Part shown: positions 21,650 to 26,955 of the stretch, piece after piece
How positions within the stretch are numbered: the stretch's first letter is position 1
Layout: each line of letters begins with the position of its first letter
DNA from: Trichodesmium erythraeum IMS101
GTDB lineage: Bacteria > Cyanobacteriota > Cyanobacteriia > Cyanobacteriales > Microcoleaceae
Assembly: GCF_000014265.1 (NCBI RefSeq)
Contig: NC_008312.1
Coordinates: 1,200,001 to 1,232,000 of the forward strand
Direction of reading: 5' to 3'
Length of the DNA: 32,000 nucleotides
Translations under genes and position numbers: made by a program
Notes under the pieces: model-generated
Databases searched by the model: none
What the model was told of the DNA's origin: nothing
The model's input: only the letters and a program-made list of their open reading frames with translations

Positions 21650-22027
21650 ATGGCTCACCTAAAAAAATACGATTCATTAGATCGTTCTTTAGAAAAAGCT
21701 TTGACAAATCAACTGATAGATAAGTATTTTGACCATACGGAAAGTTGGCTGAGGGCTATTCTACGAAAGTGCATTTTTTCTCTTGCTTATGTGCATGAAG
21801 AAACTATTTTAACTATTGAATGTCCAAATTTGGCTATTGCTAAAAGGTTGAGTCGTAAAACTCATCCTTTTTTATGTTTTGCAGAGTATTTTTCTGACTA
21901 TCAAAATGATCGGGTTTTGATTTGTTATTTGGATGAGGGTAAAAGTTGGCAGTGTTTTGACTCAACTGAAAAGTTGTGGATGCCTTTGGCTAATTTTGTT
22001 TCTTATTCTGCTCAAACTGATTATTAA
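21650..22027 (+). CDS. Hypothetical protein (125 aa), divergent from the M48 gene
   Basis: An open frame of 125 codons in AT-rich DNA with an ATG start. I recognise no motif. Confidence 0.5.
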   Translation: MAHLKKYDSLDRSLEKALTNQLIDKYFDHTESWLRAILRKCIFSLAYVHEETILTIECPNLAIAKRLSRKTHPFLCFAEYFSDYQNDRVLICYLDEGKSWQCFDSTEKLWMPLANFVSYSAQTDY

Positions 22028-22136: not shown

Positions 22137-22205
22137 GGAAGTTGAGGAGCCGGGAAGTTTAGGAGCTGCGGAGTCCGGGAGCCAGGAAGTTGAAGAGTCG
22201 GGGAC
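22137..22205. repeat. GC-rich degenerate repeat of about 16 nt (GGAAGTTGAGGAGCCG-like, 4 units)
   Basis: ggaagttgaggagccg ggaagtttaggagctgc ggagtccgggagcca ggaagttgaagagtcgggga lies about 110 nt 3' of the 125-aa ORF. Confidence 0.7.
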
Positions 22206-22757
22206 AAATAAATATCAGAATTATATACAATTATTGGCTAGTAGTAATTCCTCTTAATGTTATTGAATCTTACTAATTGTTTGATGATAAAAGTTTTGCA
22301 TTAAGTATAGCATTGTTTGGGAGAAATACATCAATTTTTGAAATTTTATTTAATATTATTTAGGTTTTTGAAGTTTCTTAATGGTTGGTGTATTTCCTCG
22401 TGTTTTGTTAAGTGATCAACCATTTATCTACATAATAAAATTTAGATCTTTTGCCTGATTAAATTAACCTATTTACTACAAAATTGGGTTTAAGTTCGGG
22501 CTCAAGTTCATAAAAGTTTACAAAAATTATATAAAATTTACACAATGAAAATAAAATTAATAGGGACAGAGGAGGATATAGTTTTCTCTTTGCTAGTTTA
22601 AGCGATCGCTCTCCAAGAAAGGTCAAAAGTTACCTATTCAAAAGTCAAATGGAAACTATCTAAATTTAACGGTTTGAAAATGTCTTATAATGATGGGGGT
22701 TACTATATTTTAATAAACTGCTATATTTCAATAAATTTTATTTTAGGATAAACATTT

Positions 22758-23264
22758 ATGGTTTATATTCATCAACGGTTAGCTGATTTAGAGAAAACGA
22801 TTAAAATACTTTACGAAAAACTGGGGTCTTTTGAAAAAGAGCTAGCTATTATCTCTCCCGGTAGTGATAAAAAGTTTGAAATACAGCAACGCATTAAGAC
22901 AGAAGTCTTACCGGATATTTTTCGTTATGAAAAGGAATACTGGGAGCTTTATCCCATGCAGGAGGTTGTTATTCCTGAAGATCAGGCGGCCAGTCAGTTG
23001 GTACAAGTTGAGCAAGCAGTTACTTCTCTTGAAGGTTCTTTTGCTGAGTACCCTCCGGAAATGTTGGCTTTGTTGGCAGAAATTCGAGCTAGGTTGGATG
23101 GTTTGGAGAGATCAGCTTCTGCTAAATTGAAAGTTGCTATACCTTTAATTCCGGCGATCGCTTCCTATGAATTGGAGATGGATACCGAAGGTGTGATGTC
23201 TAAAACCTGGAAACCTCTCAGAGGATTGATCATGAGGTTACATCCTACCTTTTTTCGGAAATGA
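22758..23264 (+). CDS. Hypothetical all-helical protein (168 aa) immediately upstream of the NB-ARC gene, or a frame-shifted N-terminal module of it
   Basis: The ATG has AGGA about 10 nt upstream. The N-terminal heptad-like region is RLADLEKTIKILYEKLGSFEKELAIISPGSDKKFEIQQRIKTEVLPDIFRYEKEYWELY. An acidic linker follows, then LALLAEIRARLDGLERSASAKLKVAIPLIPAIASYELEMDTEGVMSKTWKPLRGLIMRL, which contains a hydrophobic Pro-containing segment. The stop TGA (23262-23264) overlaps ATGATG (23261-23266). Confidence 0.65.
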   Translation: MVYIHQRLADLEKTIKILYEKLGSFEKELAIISPGSDKKFEIQQRIKTEVLPDIFRYEKEYWELYPMQEVVIPEDQAASQLVQVEQAVTSLEGSFAEYPPEMLALLAEIRARLDGLERSASAKLKVAIPLIPAIASYELEMDTEGVMSKTWKPLRGLIMRLHPTFFRK

Positions 23265-23331
23265 TGGCCAGTCAAAAAGCAATCCACCTGTCAATAATCA
23301 TCTTTTTAAGCTCCCACTGTCAGATATTTCG

Positions 23332-24285
23332 ACGTTTACTGGGCGCAGGGATGAGCTGAAACAGTTGGAAAATTTACTGCTGTTTCAGGAGGGTGAGAAA
23401 GTATGCAGTATTGTGGGGTTGACGGGAGGAGGCGGAGTTGGTAAATCTGCTTTAGCTTATCATTTTGCTACTGTCCATCGGTATGAGTTTCCTGACGGAG
23501 TGATAGGTTTGCGAGTGGATAAAAAGGATGTCAATAGTATTGCCCGTCAGTTGGCGAGAATCATTGGCCATCCTATTGATGAGGATGATGATATAGAAGC
23601 TAGGGAGATTATGCAAAGGTTCTTTGCTCCCAGGCGGATGTTGCTGATTTTTGATAATGCGGAAGAGGCGAAAATTAAGGTACTACGTCCGGGGGGAAAC
23701 CGTTGTGCTATAATTGTTACTACTAGAAAGCAGAATTTGCCTGTTTCTTTGGATTTGTCTGAAACTGCTACAATTAGGTTAAGATCGCTCCCGGAAAATG
23801 ATGCTCTGGACTTACTGAGGAATATTGTGGGTCAAAGTGAGATTGATAATGCCTTAGCTGCAGCAAAACGGATAGCTGAAGTTGTTGGTAGGTTACCTTT
23901 GGCCCTACAGGTTGCAGGTGGTACTCTGCGGGGAAAAAGGCGATCGCTGGCTACTTATGCTGATTCTCTACAAAGGCAAAAGGAGCAATTGAGACTTTTA
24001 CCACGACTACGCTTGGGGGAAGATCCAGATTTTAATGTGGTAGCTTGTTTGAATTTGAGTTTGGAGTTTTTGCAGGAGGAGGAAATTGATTTTTTTGCTT
24101 GTCTGGGGGTTTGTGGGGAGGATGGGTTTGCTCTGAGAACGGCAATGGCAGCAGGGGGTTGTGAGGATGAGTTTGATGCTGAGGATTTTTTAAATAAGTT
24201 GTATGAGGTATCGTTGTTGAATTCTGAGGAAGTTCAACAGGACCGTTTTGTATTACATCCTTTGGTGCGGGAGTATGCTAGGTCT
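23332..24285 (+). other. NB-ARC (AP-ATPase) nucleotide-binding module of the STAND protein
   Basis: Runs from TFTGRRDEL through the P-loop, Walker B, TTR, GLPL-like and LHP (MHD-like) motifs, in the canonical order and spacing. Confidence 0.85.
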
Positions 24286-26955
24286 GTTGCTCAAGATAGG
24301 AATTTGCTGAGTTTGGCTCAGGAACGTCATGCTCAGTTTTTTGTGGAGCGGTTACAGTTTGATGATTTGGAGGATGAGACGGTTATTGCGGAAGTTGCTA
24401 CAGATTTGAGTGATGTGTTCTTAGCTGCTGAGTGGTTGCAGAGTTATTGGGGTCAGACGACGGAGAGTAGAAAGGAAGCTTATGAATTTGTTTTAAAGTT
24501 GCAGCCGTTATTTGAACATTATGGCTATTGGGAACAGGGAATTAGTCTGATGGAAAGACTTCAAACTTGGGCAGAACAATTTGATGATTGGTATACAATA
24601 GTTAGATGTCAAATGCACCAAGGTCGGTATTGGTCTTTTGTAGAAGAATTTGAACGAGCAGAAGAAATCTTAATTTCTGCAAAAGATATTTCATCTGATG
24701 ATCAAAAAATTGAAGATATAGATACGCGGGGGAAGCGCCATTCTAAAGTACTAAATGTACTAGGTGGTGTTTATAAGAAACAAGGTAAGACGGAAAAAGC
24801 TATTGAAACTTTTAAAGCACAAATAGCAATTGATGAAAGTCTTGATGATAAAAAGTCTCTTACTATTGCTTGGAACCGTTTAGGAGGAGTGTTAGAAAAA
24901 CAAGGTAAATTCAAGGAAGCACAGCAGGCTTTTGAAACCGAAATAGACCTCGCTAAAAGTATTGATGACAAACATGGACTTGCTATTGGCTGGAATTGTT
25001 TAGGAGGAGTGTTAGAAAAACAAGGTCAATTCAAGGAAGCACAGCAGGCTTTTGAAAAGGGAATAGAGCTGGCTAAAAGTCTTGATGACAAACGTGAACT
25101 TGCTATTGCCTGGAATTGTTTAGGAGGAGTGTTAGAAAAACAAGGTAAATTCAAGGAAGCACAGCACGCTTTTGAAAAGGGAATAGAGCTGGCTAAAAGT
25201 CTTGATGACAAACATCAACTTGCTATTGGCTGGAATTGTTTAGGAGGAGTGTTAGAAAAACAAGGTAAATTCAAGGAAGCACAGGAGGCTTTTGAAAAGG
25301 AAATAGAGCTGGCTAAAAGTCTTGATGACAAACATGGACTTGCTATTGGCTGGAACCGTTTAGGAGGAGTGTTAGAAAAACAAGGTCAATTCAAGGAAGC
25401 ACAGCAGGCTTTTGAAAAGGGAATAGAGCTGGCTAAAAGTCTTGATGACAAACATGGACTTGCTATTGGCTGGAACCGTTTAGGAGGAGTGTTAGAAAAA
25501 CAAGGTCAATTCAAGGAAGCACAGCAGGCTTTTGAAAAGGGAATAGAGCTGGCTAAAAGTCTTGATGACAAACATCAACTTGCTATTGGCTGGAATTGTT
25601 TAGGAGGAGTGTTAGAAAAACAAGGTCAATTCAAGGAAGCACAGCACGCTTTTGAAACCGAAATAGACCTCGCTAAAAGTCTTGATGACAAACATGGACT
25701 TGCTATTGGCTGGAATTGTTTAGGAGGAGTGTTAGAAAAACAAGAGAAACTCAAGGAAGCAGAGCACGCTTTTGAAAAAACAATCAAGAATACAGACTTC
25801 AATCATAAACAGTCTCTTACTCTTGGCTGGAAGCGTTTAGAAAGAGTGCAAAAAAAGAGGAAATTAAAGGAAGCACAACAAGCTTTGAAAGAACAAATAG
25901 AGAACGCTAAAAGTCTGGATGACCAAAAATCTCTTGCTATTAGCTGGAATTCTCTAGGAGAGTTGCTAAAAAAAGAGAGGAAACTAGATGAAGCACAGCA
26001 GGCTTTTGAAATAGTAATTAATATCAGCCAAAATTTCAAAGATCAATATTTTTTAACTGCGTGGGCATTACATAATTTAGGCATAATTTATAAATCAAAA
26101 AAAGAATTTGAAACAGCCGAAAAATTCCTCAAGGAAAGCGTCGAAATTTTTAAAGATAACAATTATTTACCAGGTTTAACAAAAGTGATGAGTACCCTAG
26201 GCAGTGTTCTAGAAAAACAACAGAAATGGAAAGAAGCAAAGAAAGTCTTAGAAGAAAGTTACAGTTTTGCCGAAAAACTTGGGGATGAATTAGGACAAGC
26301 TATTATAGCCAATAGCTTAGGACAAGTTATGGCTCATCTGGAAGAAGACGAAGCTCATGAGCGTTCCTTTATGTACTTTAACCAAAGCATTAAACTAGGA
26401 AAAAAACTAAATAATGAACCTCACCTAGCAAAAGTATATACAGCAAGAGGAAAAATATTTTGCAACCGCGGACAGAACGAACGCGCTGTTGAAGAATTGT
26501 CTCAAGGGTTTGAAATTGATGTCAAATTAGGCAACATCCGAGGTTTAAGGATAATTATTCCCAGTATAACCCGTATTTTATCTACATTAGGAAAACAAGA
26601 AGAAGCATTAGCATATTGTGAGCGGGCACTAAAAGTTGCTCCTAATAATACCAGTTTCCAAGAATTATATCACAAAATTCAGAGAGCGATCGCCACAGGT
26701 ACTCAGCCAACCTTCTTTATAACAGGTTCAGTGCAATACATTCGGTATGATAAAAAAGAAAAGTTATACAGGGGTAGAATTAGTCCAGATGATGGAACCT
26801 TAGACATTTTCTTTAACGACAAATACATGAATACTGAGTCTATATCTCAATTAACCGAAGGAGAGTTAGTAGAAGTTGAGGTCAAAGAAAAAAATGGAAA
26901 ACGCTATGCAAAACAAATTAGTGTAATTGAGGAAGAAGAAGATGATGATTGGTAA
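23365..26955 (+). CDS. STAND NTPase (NLR-like): NB-ARC domain + about 20 TPR-like repeats + C-terminal cold-shock-like OB fold; true 5' end unresolved (frame open from 23236)
   Basis: Coordinates are from the ORF track (TTG start).
- NB-ARC motifs read from the translation: P-loop GLTGGGGVGKS (23416-23448), Walker B LLIFDNAEE (D at 23653), IIVTTR (RNBS-B/sensor I), GRLPLALQVAG (GLPL motif, 23887-), LHPLVREYA (MHD-like, H at 24256).
- The same frame continues upstream without a stop as GYILPFFGNDGQSKSNPPVNNHLFKLPLSDISTFTGRRDELKQL. This includes the 'F.GR..EL..L' element that normally precedes the P-loop, so the TTG is probably not the real N-terminus. Confidence 0.9.
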   Translation: MENLLLFQEGEKVCSIVGLTGGGGVGKSALAYHFATVHRYEFPDGVIGLRVDKKDVNSIARQLARIIGHPIDEDDDIEAREIMQRFFAPRRMLLIFDNAEEAKIKVLRPGGNRCAIIVTTRKQNLPVSLDLSETATIRLRSLPENDALDLLRNIVGQSEIDNALAAAKRIAEVVGRLPLALQVAGGTLRGKRRSLATYADSLQRQKEQLRLLPRLRLGEDPDFNVVACLNLSLEFLQEEEIDFFACLGVCGEDGFALRTAMAAGGCEDEFDAEDFLNKLYEVSLLNSEEVQQDRFVLHPLVREYARSVAQDRNLLSLAQERHAQFFVERLQFDDLEDETVIAEVATDLSDVFLAAEWLQSYWGQTTESRKEAYEFVLKLQPLFEHYGYWEQGISLMERLQTWAEQFDDWYTIVRCQMHQGRYWSFVEEFERAEEILISAKDISSDDQKIEDIDTRGKRHSKVLNVLGGVYKKQGKTEKAIETFKAQIAIDESLDDKKSLTIAWNRLGGVLEKQGKFKEAQQAFETEIDLAKSIDDKHGLAIGWNCLGGVLEKQGQFKEAQQAFEKGIELAKSLDDKRELAIAWNCLGGVLEKQGKFKEAQHAFEKGIELAKSLDDKHQLAIGWNCLGGVLEKQGKFKEAQEAFEKEIELAKSLDDKHGLAIGWNRLGGVLEKQGQFKEAQQAFEKGIELAKSLDDKHGLAIGWNRLGGVLEKQGQFKEAQQAFEKGIELAKSLDDKHQLAIGWNCLGGVLEKQGQFKEAQHAFETEIDLAKSLDDKHGLAIGWNCLGGVLEKQEKLKEAEHAFEKTIKNTDFNHKQSLTLGWKRLERVQKKRKLKEAQQALKEQIENAKSLDDQKSLAISWNSLGELLKKERKLDEAQQAFEIVINISQNFKDQYFLTAWALHNLGIIYKSKKEFETAEKFLKESVEIFKDNNYLPGLTKVMSTLGSVLEKQQKWKEAKKVLEESYSFAEKLGDELGQAIIANSLGQVMAHLEEDEAHERSFMYFNQSIKLGKKLNNEPHLAKVYTARGKIFCNRGQNERAVEELSQGFEIDVKLGNIRGLRIIIPSITRILSTLGKQEEALAYCERALKVAPNNTSFQELYHKIQRAIATGTQPTFFITGSVQYIRYDKKEKLYRGRISPDDGTLDIFFNDKYMNTESISQLTEGELVEVEVKEKNGKRYAKQISVIEEEEDDDW
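24721..26034 (+). repeat. In-frame tandem array of 120-nt (40-codon) TPR-like cassettes: 8 near-identical core units (24841-25800) plus 3 diverged flanking units
   Basis: Unit starts lie at 24721, 24841, 24961, 25081, 25201, 25321, 25441, 25561, 25681, 25801 (38 codons) and 25915. The consensus is LDDKHGLAIGWNCLGGVLEKQGQFKEAQQAFEKGIELAKS. The units 25321-25440 and 25441-25560 are identical. Confidence 0.95.
26710..26925 (+). other. Cold-shock-domain-like OB fold at the C-terminus of the STAND protein, followed by the acidic tail EEEEDDDW
   Basis: The sequence is TFFITGSVQYIRYDKKEKLYRGRISPDDGTLDIFFNDKYMNTESISQLTEGELVEVEVKEKNGKRYAKQISVI. It follows the CSD pattern G.V.(W/Y)....(K)GYG(F)I..DDG..D(I/V)F(V/F)H.S.I......L.EG..VEF.V....GK..A..V. 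The RNP1/RNP2 positions are only partly aromatic (LYRGRI, DIFFN). Confidence 0.55.

Follow-up and report, generated by a model that had tools for sequence, protein, structure and literature searches.

A conserved frame break at the start of an NB-ARC-TPR gene of Trichodesmium and Okeania and its possible bypass by +1 frameshifting from the upstream adaptor gene

In the fungal NWD2/HET-S pair, as in bacterial amyloid signalling, an NLR is encoded next to an effector gene and the two partners carry matching N-terminal motifs. Multicellular bacteria possess conflict systems in which STAND, vWA-MoxR or iSTAND proteins are coupled through EADs, one small helical adaptor being carried by a constant small protein and by an adjacent variable core or effector (Kaur, Burroughs, Iyer and Aravind 2020, PMC7159879). 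The present analysis concerns a cassette of this general type found in Trichodesmium erythraeum IMS101, within a stretch of 32,000 nucleotides (nt) of contig NC_008312.1 (assembly GCF_000014265.1, positions 1,200,001 to 1,232,000) that is hereafter called the window and to whose first letter all coordinates refer. The comparisons described below indicate that two genes make up the locus and form a conflict cassette of the NLR-like kind, the upstream gene (gene A) encoding a small helical adaptor or effector and the downstream gene (gene B) an NB-ARC-TPR sensor. The reading frame of the sensor has no canonical start codon ahead of its conserved N-terminal region and is out of phase with gene A, and the cell probably makes the sensor by an unusual route, for which a +1 ribosomal shift at the end of gene A is the tentatively favored candidate.

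Two unorthodox ways of entering a reading frame are pertinent here. In E. coli, infC and pcnB are translated from a non-AUG (AUU) codon, AUC and AUU initiating at roughly 1% or less of the level of AUG, and the +1 shifting of prfB is stimulated by a Shine-Dalgarno sequence located at a 3-nt spacing. As to shifts at phenylalanine codons, the string UUU_Ynn has a particular tendency towards +1 frameshifting in bacteria and is the proposed site of the Yersinia YopN-TyeA fusion, the +1 cassette of influenza PA-X is UCC_UUU_CGU (PMC5009743), and msi172/msi171 of ICEMlSymR7A, which yield FseA, represent a bacterial +1 fusion of adjacent open reading frames (ORFs) (Atkins et al. 2016, PMC5009743). 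A stimulatory element is not obligatory at UUU_Y +1 sites.

At the locus under study, all of whose features lie on the + strand, gene A (22758-23264 in the ORF listing) encodes 168 amino acids (aa) and its last codons are ACC TTT TTT CGG AAA TGA, the stop TGA (23262-23264) overlapping an ATG at 23261 as ATGA. The frame of the NB-ARC (STAND NTPase)-TPR protein, that ends with a cold-shock-like C-terminal domain, extends from 23236 to 26955 (1239 codons plus the stop); it opens right after a TGA at 23233-23235 and encodes GYILPFFGNDGQSKSNPPVNNHLFKLPLSDISTFTGRRDELKQLE. This frame is +1 with respect to the gene A ORF and −1 with respect to the frame of an ATGATG (23261-23266), from which a third-frame ORF of 32 codons (MMASQKAIHLSIIIFLSSHCQIFRRLLGAGMS, 23261-23359) runs through an A5 tract (23274-23278) and ends 5 nt before the TTG (23365-23367) annotated as the NB-ARC start, which gives a product of 1196 aa (P0212). 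The NB-ARC frame contains no ATG, GTG or TTG between 23236 and this TTG, and a pre-P-loop coding segment, LFKLPLSDISTFTGRRDELKQ (23302-23364), that fits the family motif PF.LP..D...FTGR..EL, lies 5′ of it. The preliminary description of this DNA, made from the letters of the window, had set out the relative phases of the gene A ORF, of the NB-ARC frame and of the ATGATG frame together with the T6, the ATGATG, the A5 and the ATGA overlap, and all of them are confirmed at the coordinates given, as is the lack of an ATG or GTG in the NB-ARC frame before the TTG; the alternative starts of translation table 11 do occur, however, namely ATC 23242, CTG 23317, ATT 23326 and CTG 23356. The T6 (23250-23255) is part of TTT TTT CGG (23250-23258), a candidate site for a +1 (or −2) ribosomal shift. 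Upstream of it, the codons corresponding to gene A’s canonical C-terminal Arg-Arg, as identified by aligning the junction with canonical cassettes, constitute a Shine-Dalgarno-like ATGAGG (23232-23237), whose distance from the T6 is 12 nt and which is followed after 4 nt by the ATC (23242-23244), a candidate non-AUG start in the NB-ARC frame. No match to a promoter or terminator consensus was found on the + strand between the two ORFs. What the preliminary description had missed is twofold: the ATC behind the Shine-Dalgarno sequence and the origin of the junction in the joint loss of an adaptor hairpin and of a canonical start.

The junction was compared with its counterparts in metagenome-assembled genomes (MAGs ALOHA_ZT_67, St19_bin1 and MAG_R02), in a Logan assembly and in ENA marine-metagenome assemblies including Tara. 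Of the 10 other Trichodesmium contigs, all from independent assemblies, 9 match the window base for base from the T6 through the A5, and the tenth (L036) differs by one base located between ATGATG and A5; length variants of the T- or of the A-run were found in none of the DNA copies compared. In Okeania sp. SIO3I5 (L014) the homologous junction reads ..AGG AGG TTA AAT TCC ACC TTT TTT CGA TAA TA ATG GCA AGT CAA AGA GCT .., so that the T6 followed by CGR, the gene A stop one codon on, an ATG-led third-frame ORF of 32 codons and the NB-ARC frame in +1 are all retained, and the latter frame is free of ATG, GTG and TTG until past the FTGR motif. Indeed, there is no exception to the string T6-CGR among the 11 Trichodesmium copies, which have CGG, and the Okeania copy, which has CGA, while the flanks of this string differ at ~17% of positions, the identity of the junction between the two genera being 83% over 174 nt. 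Other elements of the junction have changed. The position of ATC 23242 is occupied by ATT in Okeania and that of TTG 23365 by TTA; a GTG is found in Okeania three codons 3′ of the TTG position, where most Trichodesmium copies have TTA or GTA. The Shine-Dalgarno sequence is AGGAGG in most other strains and in Okeania and ATGAGG or AAGAGG in IMS101, L001 and L036. The first A-run is broken in Okeania (CAAAGAG), where a second run is A6; IMS101, L001 and L036 no longer possess this second run (A5 or A6 where present), which IMS101 has lost by a 3-nt deletion. Taken together, these data indicate that the frame break is real, old and conserved in two genera. Genome contigs, when scanned, contributed just one more locus from Trichodesmium and a single one from Okeania, no further taxa with the junction came out of the JGI metagenome contigs, and no Okeania-like copy was present in the protein databases searched. 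The 13 calls of the downstream gene that were examined, from genomes, MAGs and metagenome contigs of Trichodesmium, include no fusion and no start with MMASQKS: all start at the TTG or later, and those that reach TTG 23365 all take it as the start.

Several lines of evidence bear on where the NB-ARC frame begins to be decoded. Homology reaches upstream of TTG 23365, because the Pfam NB-ARC model (PF00931, E = 1.3e-19) matches residues 40-248 of the frame opened at 23236 and NCBIfam STAND models start matching at residues 23-32. The P-loop GLTGGGGVGKS and FTGRRDELKQLE are both found in this frame, whose C-terminal repeats match TPR_12 (E = 7.6e-80) and TPR_MalT (E = 9e-38); an NB-ARC domain with its P-loop, the F.GR..EL helix and the repeats expected of a STAND NTPase with a TPR sensor are therefore all present. 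The conserved PF.LP..D...FTGR..EL is kept upstream of the TTG, as in Microcystis, Nostoc, Fischerella and other homologs. When the NB-ARC frame of the window was compared with that of Okeania by the Nei-Gojobori method, the synonymous divergence (dS) was found to be 0.42 and the non-synonymous one (dN) 0.16, with a dN/dS of 0.38 (0.35 over the first 500 codons), the frame being open over 1239 codons in the window and over at least 1005 in Okeania; within Trichodesmium dN/dS is higher (0.45-0.76). A dN/dS near 1 and stops downstream of the lesion, which would mark a pseudogene, are not observed. In the 14 codons ending at the TTG (ISTFTGRKDELKQL), L004 and Okeania are separated by 6 changes, every one of them synonymous when read in the NB-ARC frame (p about 1.5e-4, for 9.7 synonymous vs 32.3 non-synonymous sites) and nearly all of them non-synonymous when read in either of the other two frames. 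Since these changes lie upstream of a TTG that is TTA in Okeania, translation must begin farther upstream; the NB-ARC frame, to judge from these substitutions, is under purifying selection and is translated from upstream of 23365, its decoding beginning somewhere between 23236 and ~23300. The 1196-aa model (P0212), like its counterparts among the gene calls of other Trichodesmium genomes and MAGs, is probably truncated and leaves out a selected part of the NTPase domain, and beyond ~23290 the third-frame ORF is probably not the coding frame.

The way in which this junction arose can be deduced from its canonical relatives. At 18 canonical loci the codons of the Arg-Arg with which gene A ends (AGGAG[A/G]) are followed by the stop, by 3 nt and then by the ATG or GTG of gene B, the Arg-Arg codons lying ~6 nt 5′ of the gene B ATG. 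The N-terminus of the canonical gene B product is a helical hairpin of ~55 aa that is homologous to the N-terminal hairpin of gene A (hhalign probability 96.5%, E = 8e-10); EAD9 (PF19962) matches 9 of the 18 gene B hairpins, with a best E of 6e-4 and always under the gathering score. The bodies that follow this hairpin vary and comprise NB-ARC-TPR, NACHT-TPR, iSTAND + MoxR + vWA, trypsin/TRADD-N/EAD7, PNP and Peripla_BP_6. The comparison of orthologous loci, that the preliminary description had proposed as a means of learning whether the two ORFs are fused or separate, thus gives a composite answer: the ORFs are separate and gene B has its own start in the 18 canonical relatives, fusions exist elsewhere, and Trichodesmium and Okeania share the frame-broken junction. 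The same adaptor is present on both partners in all 18 canonical cassettes and on only one of them in the window, where no hairpin is encoded in the NB-ARC frame and gene A carries an unusual 8-residue tail (LHPTFFRK) that extends, in the alignment, past the canonical ..RR end of the family.

An intact version of the locus was found in marine-metagenome contigs L009-L012, where gene A has 161 aa and ends ..GRQ TAA with a GTG directly after, and where residues 1-57 of the NB-ARC protein are the hairpin, followed by ..DQTVKNNHLFKLPLPDISTFTGRKDEL. The intact L009 and the broken L004 are two versions of one locus: an aldehyde dehydrogenase gene lies upstream in both, the sequences on either side of the junction are 96% identical, and it is only at the junction that the two differ. 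Allowing for the homologous ..RR codons, ~180 nt comprising the stop, the GTG and the hairpin are replaced in the broken form by 45 nt, TTACATCCTACCTTTTTTCGGAAATGATGGCCAGTCAAAAAGCAAT. Because of this replacement, the broken form has lost the gene B start and the adaptor hairpin, and gene A has been lengthened by 8 codons. The possibility that a single ancestral gene was split by an indel was rejected, gene A being standalone in most genomes and ~180 nt having been swapped for 45 nt rather than one base gained or lost. Of the initial proposal that the locus is a single coiled-coil-like NB-ARC gene interrupted by an indel, sequencing error and phase variation are excluded, pseudogenization is unlikely and the standalone nature of most gene A copies speaks against it, whereas an in-frame fusion of gene A with a STAND protein does exist (P0261, see below). 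As to the population, L009-L012 and L004-L006 display a presence/absence polymorphism of the hairpin in one cassette, both alleles occurring in ocean metagenomes. Between the window and L004 the dS is 0.39 for gene A and 0.087 for NB-ARC, and this far greater divergence of gene A shows that copies have recombined. The gene A of L004 is itself a mosaic, with an N-terminal half of the intact-allele type and a C-terminus and junction of the window type (window 22758-23264 vs L004 5001-5507).

These premises can be accommodated by the following scheme. An ancestor common to the copies of both genera would have lost the EAD9-like hairpin and the canonical start of gene B, and the stop of its gene A would have moved 8 codons downstream. 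Most ribosomes translating gene A would terminate at TGA 23262 and yield free A protein (19 kDa), while a minority would slip by +1 at UUU_UUU_CGG (23250-23258), the P-site tRNA-Phe re-pairing from UUU to UUC so that reading resumes at GGA 23257; slipping by −2 on the T6 would lead into the same frame. The shifted ribosomes would produce a 1398-aa A-NB-ARC-TPR fusion of ~159 kDa (..RLHPTFF|GNDGQSKSNPP..), with LHPTFFGNDGQSK and LHPTFFFGNDGQSK as the predicted junction peptides of the +1 and of the −2 shift, respectively. The fusion would give back to the sensor, in cis, the adaptor module that it has lost and would fix a low ratio of sensor to adaptor. That a +1 shift at UUU_UUU_CGR yields such a fusion is the best supported of the possibilities first envisaged, albeit put forward tentatively, both the joining of the frames by slippage and its location at T6-CGR being inferred; somewhat more tentative still is the full proposal, that the sensor is made only as a trans-frame product through a conserved +1 (or −2) shift that replaces the EAD-type hairpin, one mRNA giving an excess of free adaptor and a small, fixed fraction of adaptor-sensor.

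In favor of the frameshift, the tRNA re-pairing that characterizes UUU_Ynn sites is available, since UUU re-pairs as UUC, and the T6 also permits the −2 slip (UUU to UUU). The site and the +1 arrangement are maintained, as would be expected of a shift site, ahead of a selected downstream frame that has no start of its own, this being so in two genera. Frameshifting would also explain both the displaced stop of gene A and the sensor’s doing without an adaptor of its own: unless the two proteins are fused the sensor of the window lacks the shared adaptor of EAD-coupled systems, and a frameshift fusion would restore it. Furthermore, the product would have the architecture of P0261, in which gene A, as residues 1-160, is joined in frame through ~20 aa of linker to nSTAND1 (E = 4e-123), so that the order A, linker, STAND NTPase already exists naturally in frame; the tail of gene A, disordered in the AlphaFold2 model, is linker-like.

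As in YopN-TyeA and FseA, the two ORFs are adjacent, the downstream one is in +1 and overlaps the 3′ end of the upstream one, and only a few codons separate the upstream stop from a UUU with a pyrimidine after it, the output that is predicted being mostly upstream protein and a minor amount of fusion. Unlike these cases, in which the downstream gene has its own start (tyeA) or the shift was shown experimentally, the present locus is a candidate; moreover, its downstream ORF is a STAND NTPase of 1200 codons and no stimulatory element was found. With influenza PA-X the locus shares the P-site UUU re-pairing to UUC and the Arg CGN that follows (here ACC_UUU_UUU_CGG or CGA), and the PA-X shift, having the same core, is of low efficiency and requires no RNA structure; PA-X differs, however, in that it involves a eukaryotic ribosome, a CGU that is rare in the host, as opposed to the only moderately infrequent CGG and CGA, and another E-site codon. 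Compared with EAD-coupled systems, the canonical relatives have the same organization, one small helical adaptor being borne by a constant small protein and by an adjacent variable core or effector, whereas the sensor of the window has no adaptor, the hairpin remains under the EAD9 gathering score and gene A possesses a 100-aa C-terminal module devoid of a match in the copy of Pfam searched. Finally, the cassette resembles NWD2/HET-S in having a small effector gene directly 5′ of an NLR-like NTPase, and in that part of the effector has a homologue at the canonical N-terminus of the NTPase, where it would presumably serve templated activation; it differs in that the shared module is a helical hairpin instead of an amyloid motif and is absent from the NLR ORF of the window.

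A number of observations weigh against frameshifting. CGG, which the preliminary description had regarded as rare, is not notably so, occurring 5.8 times per 1000 codons in the window’s long ORFs as compared to 6.0 for CGA, 5.0 for CGC and 6.9 for AGG. The AGGAGG is 12 nt 5′ of the T6 and does not have the 3-nt spacing of prfB, and no stimulatory RNA structure was detected at the junction (z = +1.6, no covarying pairs). In the 35 nt from the T6 to ~23290 the 4-6 changes fit all three frames about equally, and the conservation of T6-CGR is statistically weak, the junction being carried by two genera only. An in-frame fusion of gene A with NB-ARC specifically was not found in 5.8 billion protein clusters. 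Last, the near-cognate ATC/ATT located at a plausible distance behind the same AGGAGG could account for the data without recoding.

This last alternative, namely non-AUG initiation at ATC 23242 (ATT in Okeania), is the most serious competitor, though on balance unlikely. Gene B would in this case be a separate cistron of 1237 aa, beginning with (M)LPFFGNDGQSK.., overlapping the tail of gene A by 23 nt and expressed at a low level from a weak start. ATC and ATT are allowed starts in translation table 11, they occupy the same position of the NB-ARC frame in both genera, right behind a strong Shine-Dalgarno sequence, and this position is near the ancestral initiation site, as judged from the spacing between the Arg-Arg codons and the gene B ATG in canonical cassettes. 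The region around the ATC is less structured than shuffled controls, as is usual for start regions, and the hairpin-less NB-ARC gene of L039 illustrates that an unfused sensor without adaptor is viable. The similarity with infC and pcnB consists in a near-cognate Ile codon behind a Shine-Dalgarno sequence in a gene expected to be lowly expressed; the codon is, however, AUC rather than AUU, there is no known autoregulatory logic and the start is here a candidate. The very low efficiency of AUC and AUU in E. coli speaks against such an initiation, as do the 4-nt spacing, which is below the optimum, and the weakening of the Shine-Dalgarno sequence in IMS101, L001 and L036. In addition, an ATC start would leave unexplained the displacement of the gene A stop and the conservation of T6-CGR, and the sensor would be without a module matching gene A, at variance with the pairing seen in the 18 canonical cassettes.

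Improbable, by comparison, is initiation at ATGATG 23261, coupled to termination of gene A and followed by a −1 slip of tRNA-Lys on the A-run (MMASQK|SNPPVNN.., predicted peptide MMASQKSNPPVNNHLFK). The part of this proposal that stands is the tight stop-start coupling, which is the norm in the family: the ATG abuts the gene A stop in both genera, as canonical gene B starts do, and the first 11 codons show between the genera 2 synonymous changes and one K-to-R replacement. A run of at least five A’s is found within the small ORF, before the clear conservation of the NB-ARC frame begins, in every copy but L036. The slip itself fares poorly: its position is not conserved, for Okeania has an interrupted first A-run and the second one is missing from IMS101, L001 and L036; CAA_AAA_G is not a tandem slippery heptamer of the type X_XXY_YYZ; no downstream structure is present; in L036 a stop (AGT TAA) occurs in frame before the A5; and the ATG is also accounted for by a conserved Asn-Gly (AAT GGC) in the NB-ARC frame. 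With regard to L036 (1281-1382, window 23272), its C-to-T change converts the third-frame CAA into TAA, placing a stop at codon 5, and replaces Ser by Leu in the NB-ARC frame; this candidate variant is the sole one found that discriminates between the candidate routes.

Quite improbable, too, is that gene B is decaying or silent, the junction being a pseudogenizing lesion and the ORF having remained intact through recent origin or repeated gene conversion from intact paralogs or alleles of the L009 type. Trichodesmium is rich in pseudogenes and non-coding DNA, and intact and broken alleles co-occur with nearly identical flanks; the mosaicism, with its contrasting dS values in gene A and NB-ARC, and the relatively high dN/dS within Trichodesmium also fit this explanation. 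Nevertheless, the break is common to Okeania and the junction is about as diverged as the gene, which indicates that it is old; not a single stop has arisen in 1005 to 1239 codons at a dS of ~0.35-0.4 over more than 3 kb, dN/dS is ~0.35, and gene conversion would tend to repair the junction as well.

There is very little probability that the TTG 23365, or a nearby GTG, is the functional start, perhaps by re-initiation after the 32-codon ORF, with MENLLLFQEGEK as the N-terminus and without F.LP..D...FTGR..EL. This TTG is the first ATG, GTG or TTG of the frame, it is taken by all Trichodesmium calls that reach it, the small ORF bridges the gap from the gene A stop to within 5 nt of it, and in Okeania a GTG follows three codons on; the latter codon is, however, TTA or GTA in most Trichodesmium copies and the TTG itself is TTA in Okeania. 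The six synonymous and zero non-synonymous changes and the family motif upstream would be unexpected in untranslated sequence at a dS of ~0.35 and contradict the earlier suggestion that a TTG-initiated protein lacking the conserved element is the functional one. An error of sequencing or assembly, or phase variation, at the T6 or the A5 is scarcely credible in spite of the homopolymers that adjoin the break, for neither tract changes in length between the finished chromosome of IMS101 and the 10 further Trichodesmium contigs, the junction recurs in the Okeania homologue, no length variant or fused gene call was found and phase variation would call for runs longer than these 5-6 nt.

If the +1 slippage at the end of gene A is true, it would constitute a chromosomal, evolutionarily maintained recoding site, joining a very short bacterial list, and no programmed frameshift would have been described before it in an NLR-like system of prokaryotes; it would also represent a new wiring of an NLR-like sensor to its adaptor, in which stoichiometry is set by the efficiency of frameshifting and not by a shared docking domain. 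If, instead, the ATC is the start, the locus would provide a conserved non-AUG start on a large gene of the immune type. We know of no earlier description of a prokaryotic NLR-like gene with a start that is frame-broken, conserved and selected, and the literature searched for Trichodesmium NB-ARC genes and for frameshifting in EAD-coupled systems yielded nothing relevant. In either case a widespread cyanobacterial adaptor family and the logic of its cassettes are defined, and specific peptides are supplied that could decide between the routes in Trichodesmium proteomes; in addition to those given above, SNPPVNNHLFK or LPLSDISTFTGR are the predicted products of translation upstream of the TTG.

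In the gene A protein an EAD9-like hairpin at the N-terminus is combined with a C-terminal module that is conserved (..ASAKLKVAIPLIPAIASYELEMDTEG..). Its AlphaFold2 model is all-alpha (predicted local distance difference test, pLDDT, 84), with a long N-terminal hairpin; a fold search of this model against the PDB gave no match at E ≤ 0.001 and the protein has no match in the copies of Pfam, NCBIfam and PADLOC searched. Close homologs number 256, mostly of 158-169 aa, and a set of 1.84 billion proteins contains 298 representative clusters of the family; its members are for the most part standalone, 158-175 aa long and with ..LVRR at their end. The family (P0090-P0377; loci L007, L008 and L015-L032) is composed of cyanobacterial helical proteins of ~159 aa with the motif ASAKLKVxLPLIPAIASYELEMDTEG. 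Its members are adjacent or fused to NB-ARC, NACHT, nSTAND1, iSTAND-MoxR-vWA, trypsin/TRADD-N/EAD7, PNP, TIR, SEFIR, Roc-COR and Peripla_BP_6; the module is C-terminal in the fusions with TIR/SEFIR, NACHT and Roc-COR and N-terminal in those with TIR, TM-TPR and TM-Peripla_BP, while P0059 and P0061 are natural in-frame A-B fusions from which the core of the B hairpin is deleted, just as the hairpin is gone from the sensor of the window. Gene A would thus seem to behave as a constant adaptor or effector module. P0123, in which gene A has the tail LKSTNSF...SNQTVDKR, was considered as a possible in-frame relative, but the BLAST similarity is weak past the gene A domain. The resemblance of the tail RLHPTFFRK to the RLFPTFSRLL of the divergent gene-A-like P0355 and L039 was judged coincidental, the latter motif aligning to an earlier helix. 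In L039 (3483-6286) the ORF of a 163-aa protein distantly resembling gene A (..AYEGQIDTENFCRKYFPTFTRLLKGAKKP) is separated by 26 nt from an NB-ARC-TPR gene that lacks the hairpin and whose called start is a TTG, the NB-ARC frame being open far upstream, into the gene-A-like ORF; L039 may represent a second lineage with an unconventional start.

Within the sensor gene, the tandem TPR array (24836-26011) consists of 120-nt (40-codon) units present in 9.9 copies with 86% matches. The units are near-identical (..LAIGWNCLGGVLEKQGKFKEAQQAFEKGIELAKSLDDKHG..), and their copy number and content vary between Trichodesmium strains, P0004 and P0225, for instance, being shorter. This variability suggests that the sensor region is diversifying fast. 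A C-terminal cold-shock/S1-like domain (~26758-26925) is recognized by a weak match to NCBIfam CspE at residues 1175-1230; PF00313 is precomputed in the homologs P0035, P0038 and P0040, and the cold-shock domain is deleted in P0004. This unusual architecture, in which NB-ARC and TPR are followed by a cold-shock domain, hints at nucleic-acid sensing or output. The PADLOC-DB v2 defence models matched the NB-ARC-TPR protein with nothing more than a generic TPR and a weak, spurious homing-endonuclease (HEase) hit.

Upstream of the cassette, a 16-nt tandem repeat (GGAAGTTGAGGAGCCG, 4.1 copies, 22137-22202) is located between a 125-aa ORF (21650-22027) and gene A. At 22602-22609 and 23154-23161 there are HIP1 palindromes (GCGATCGC), as is typical for the genomes of cyanobacteria; the second of them lies inside the most conserved segment of gene A (IPAIAS) and is kept in all copies, including that of Okeania.

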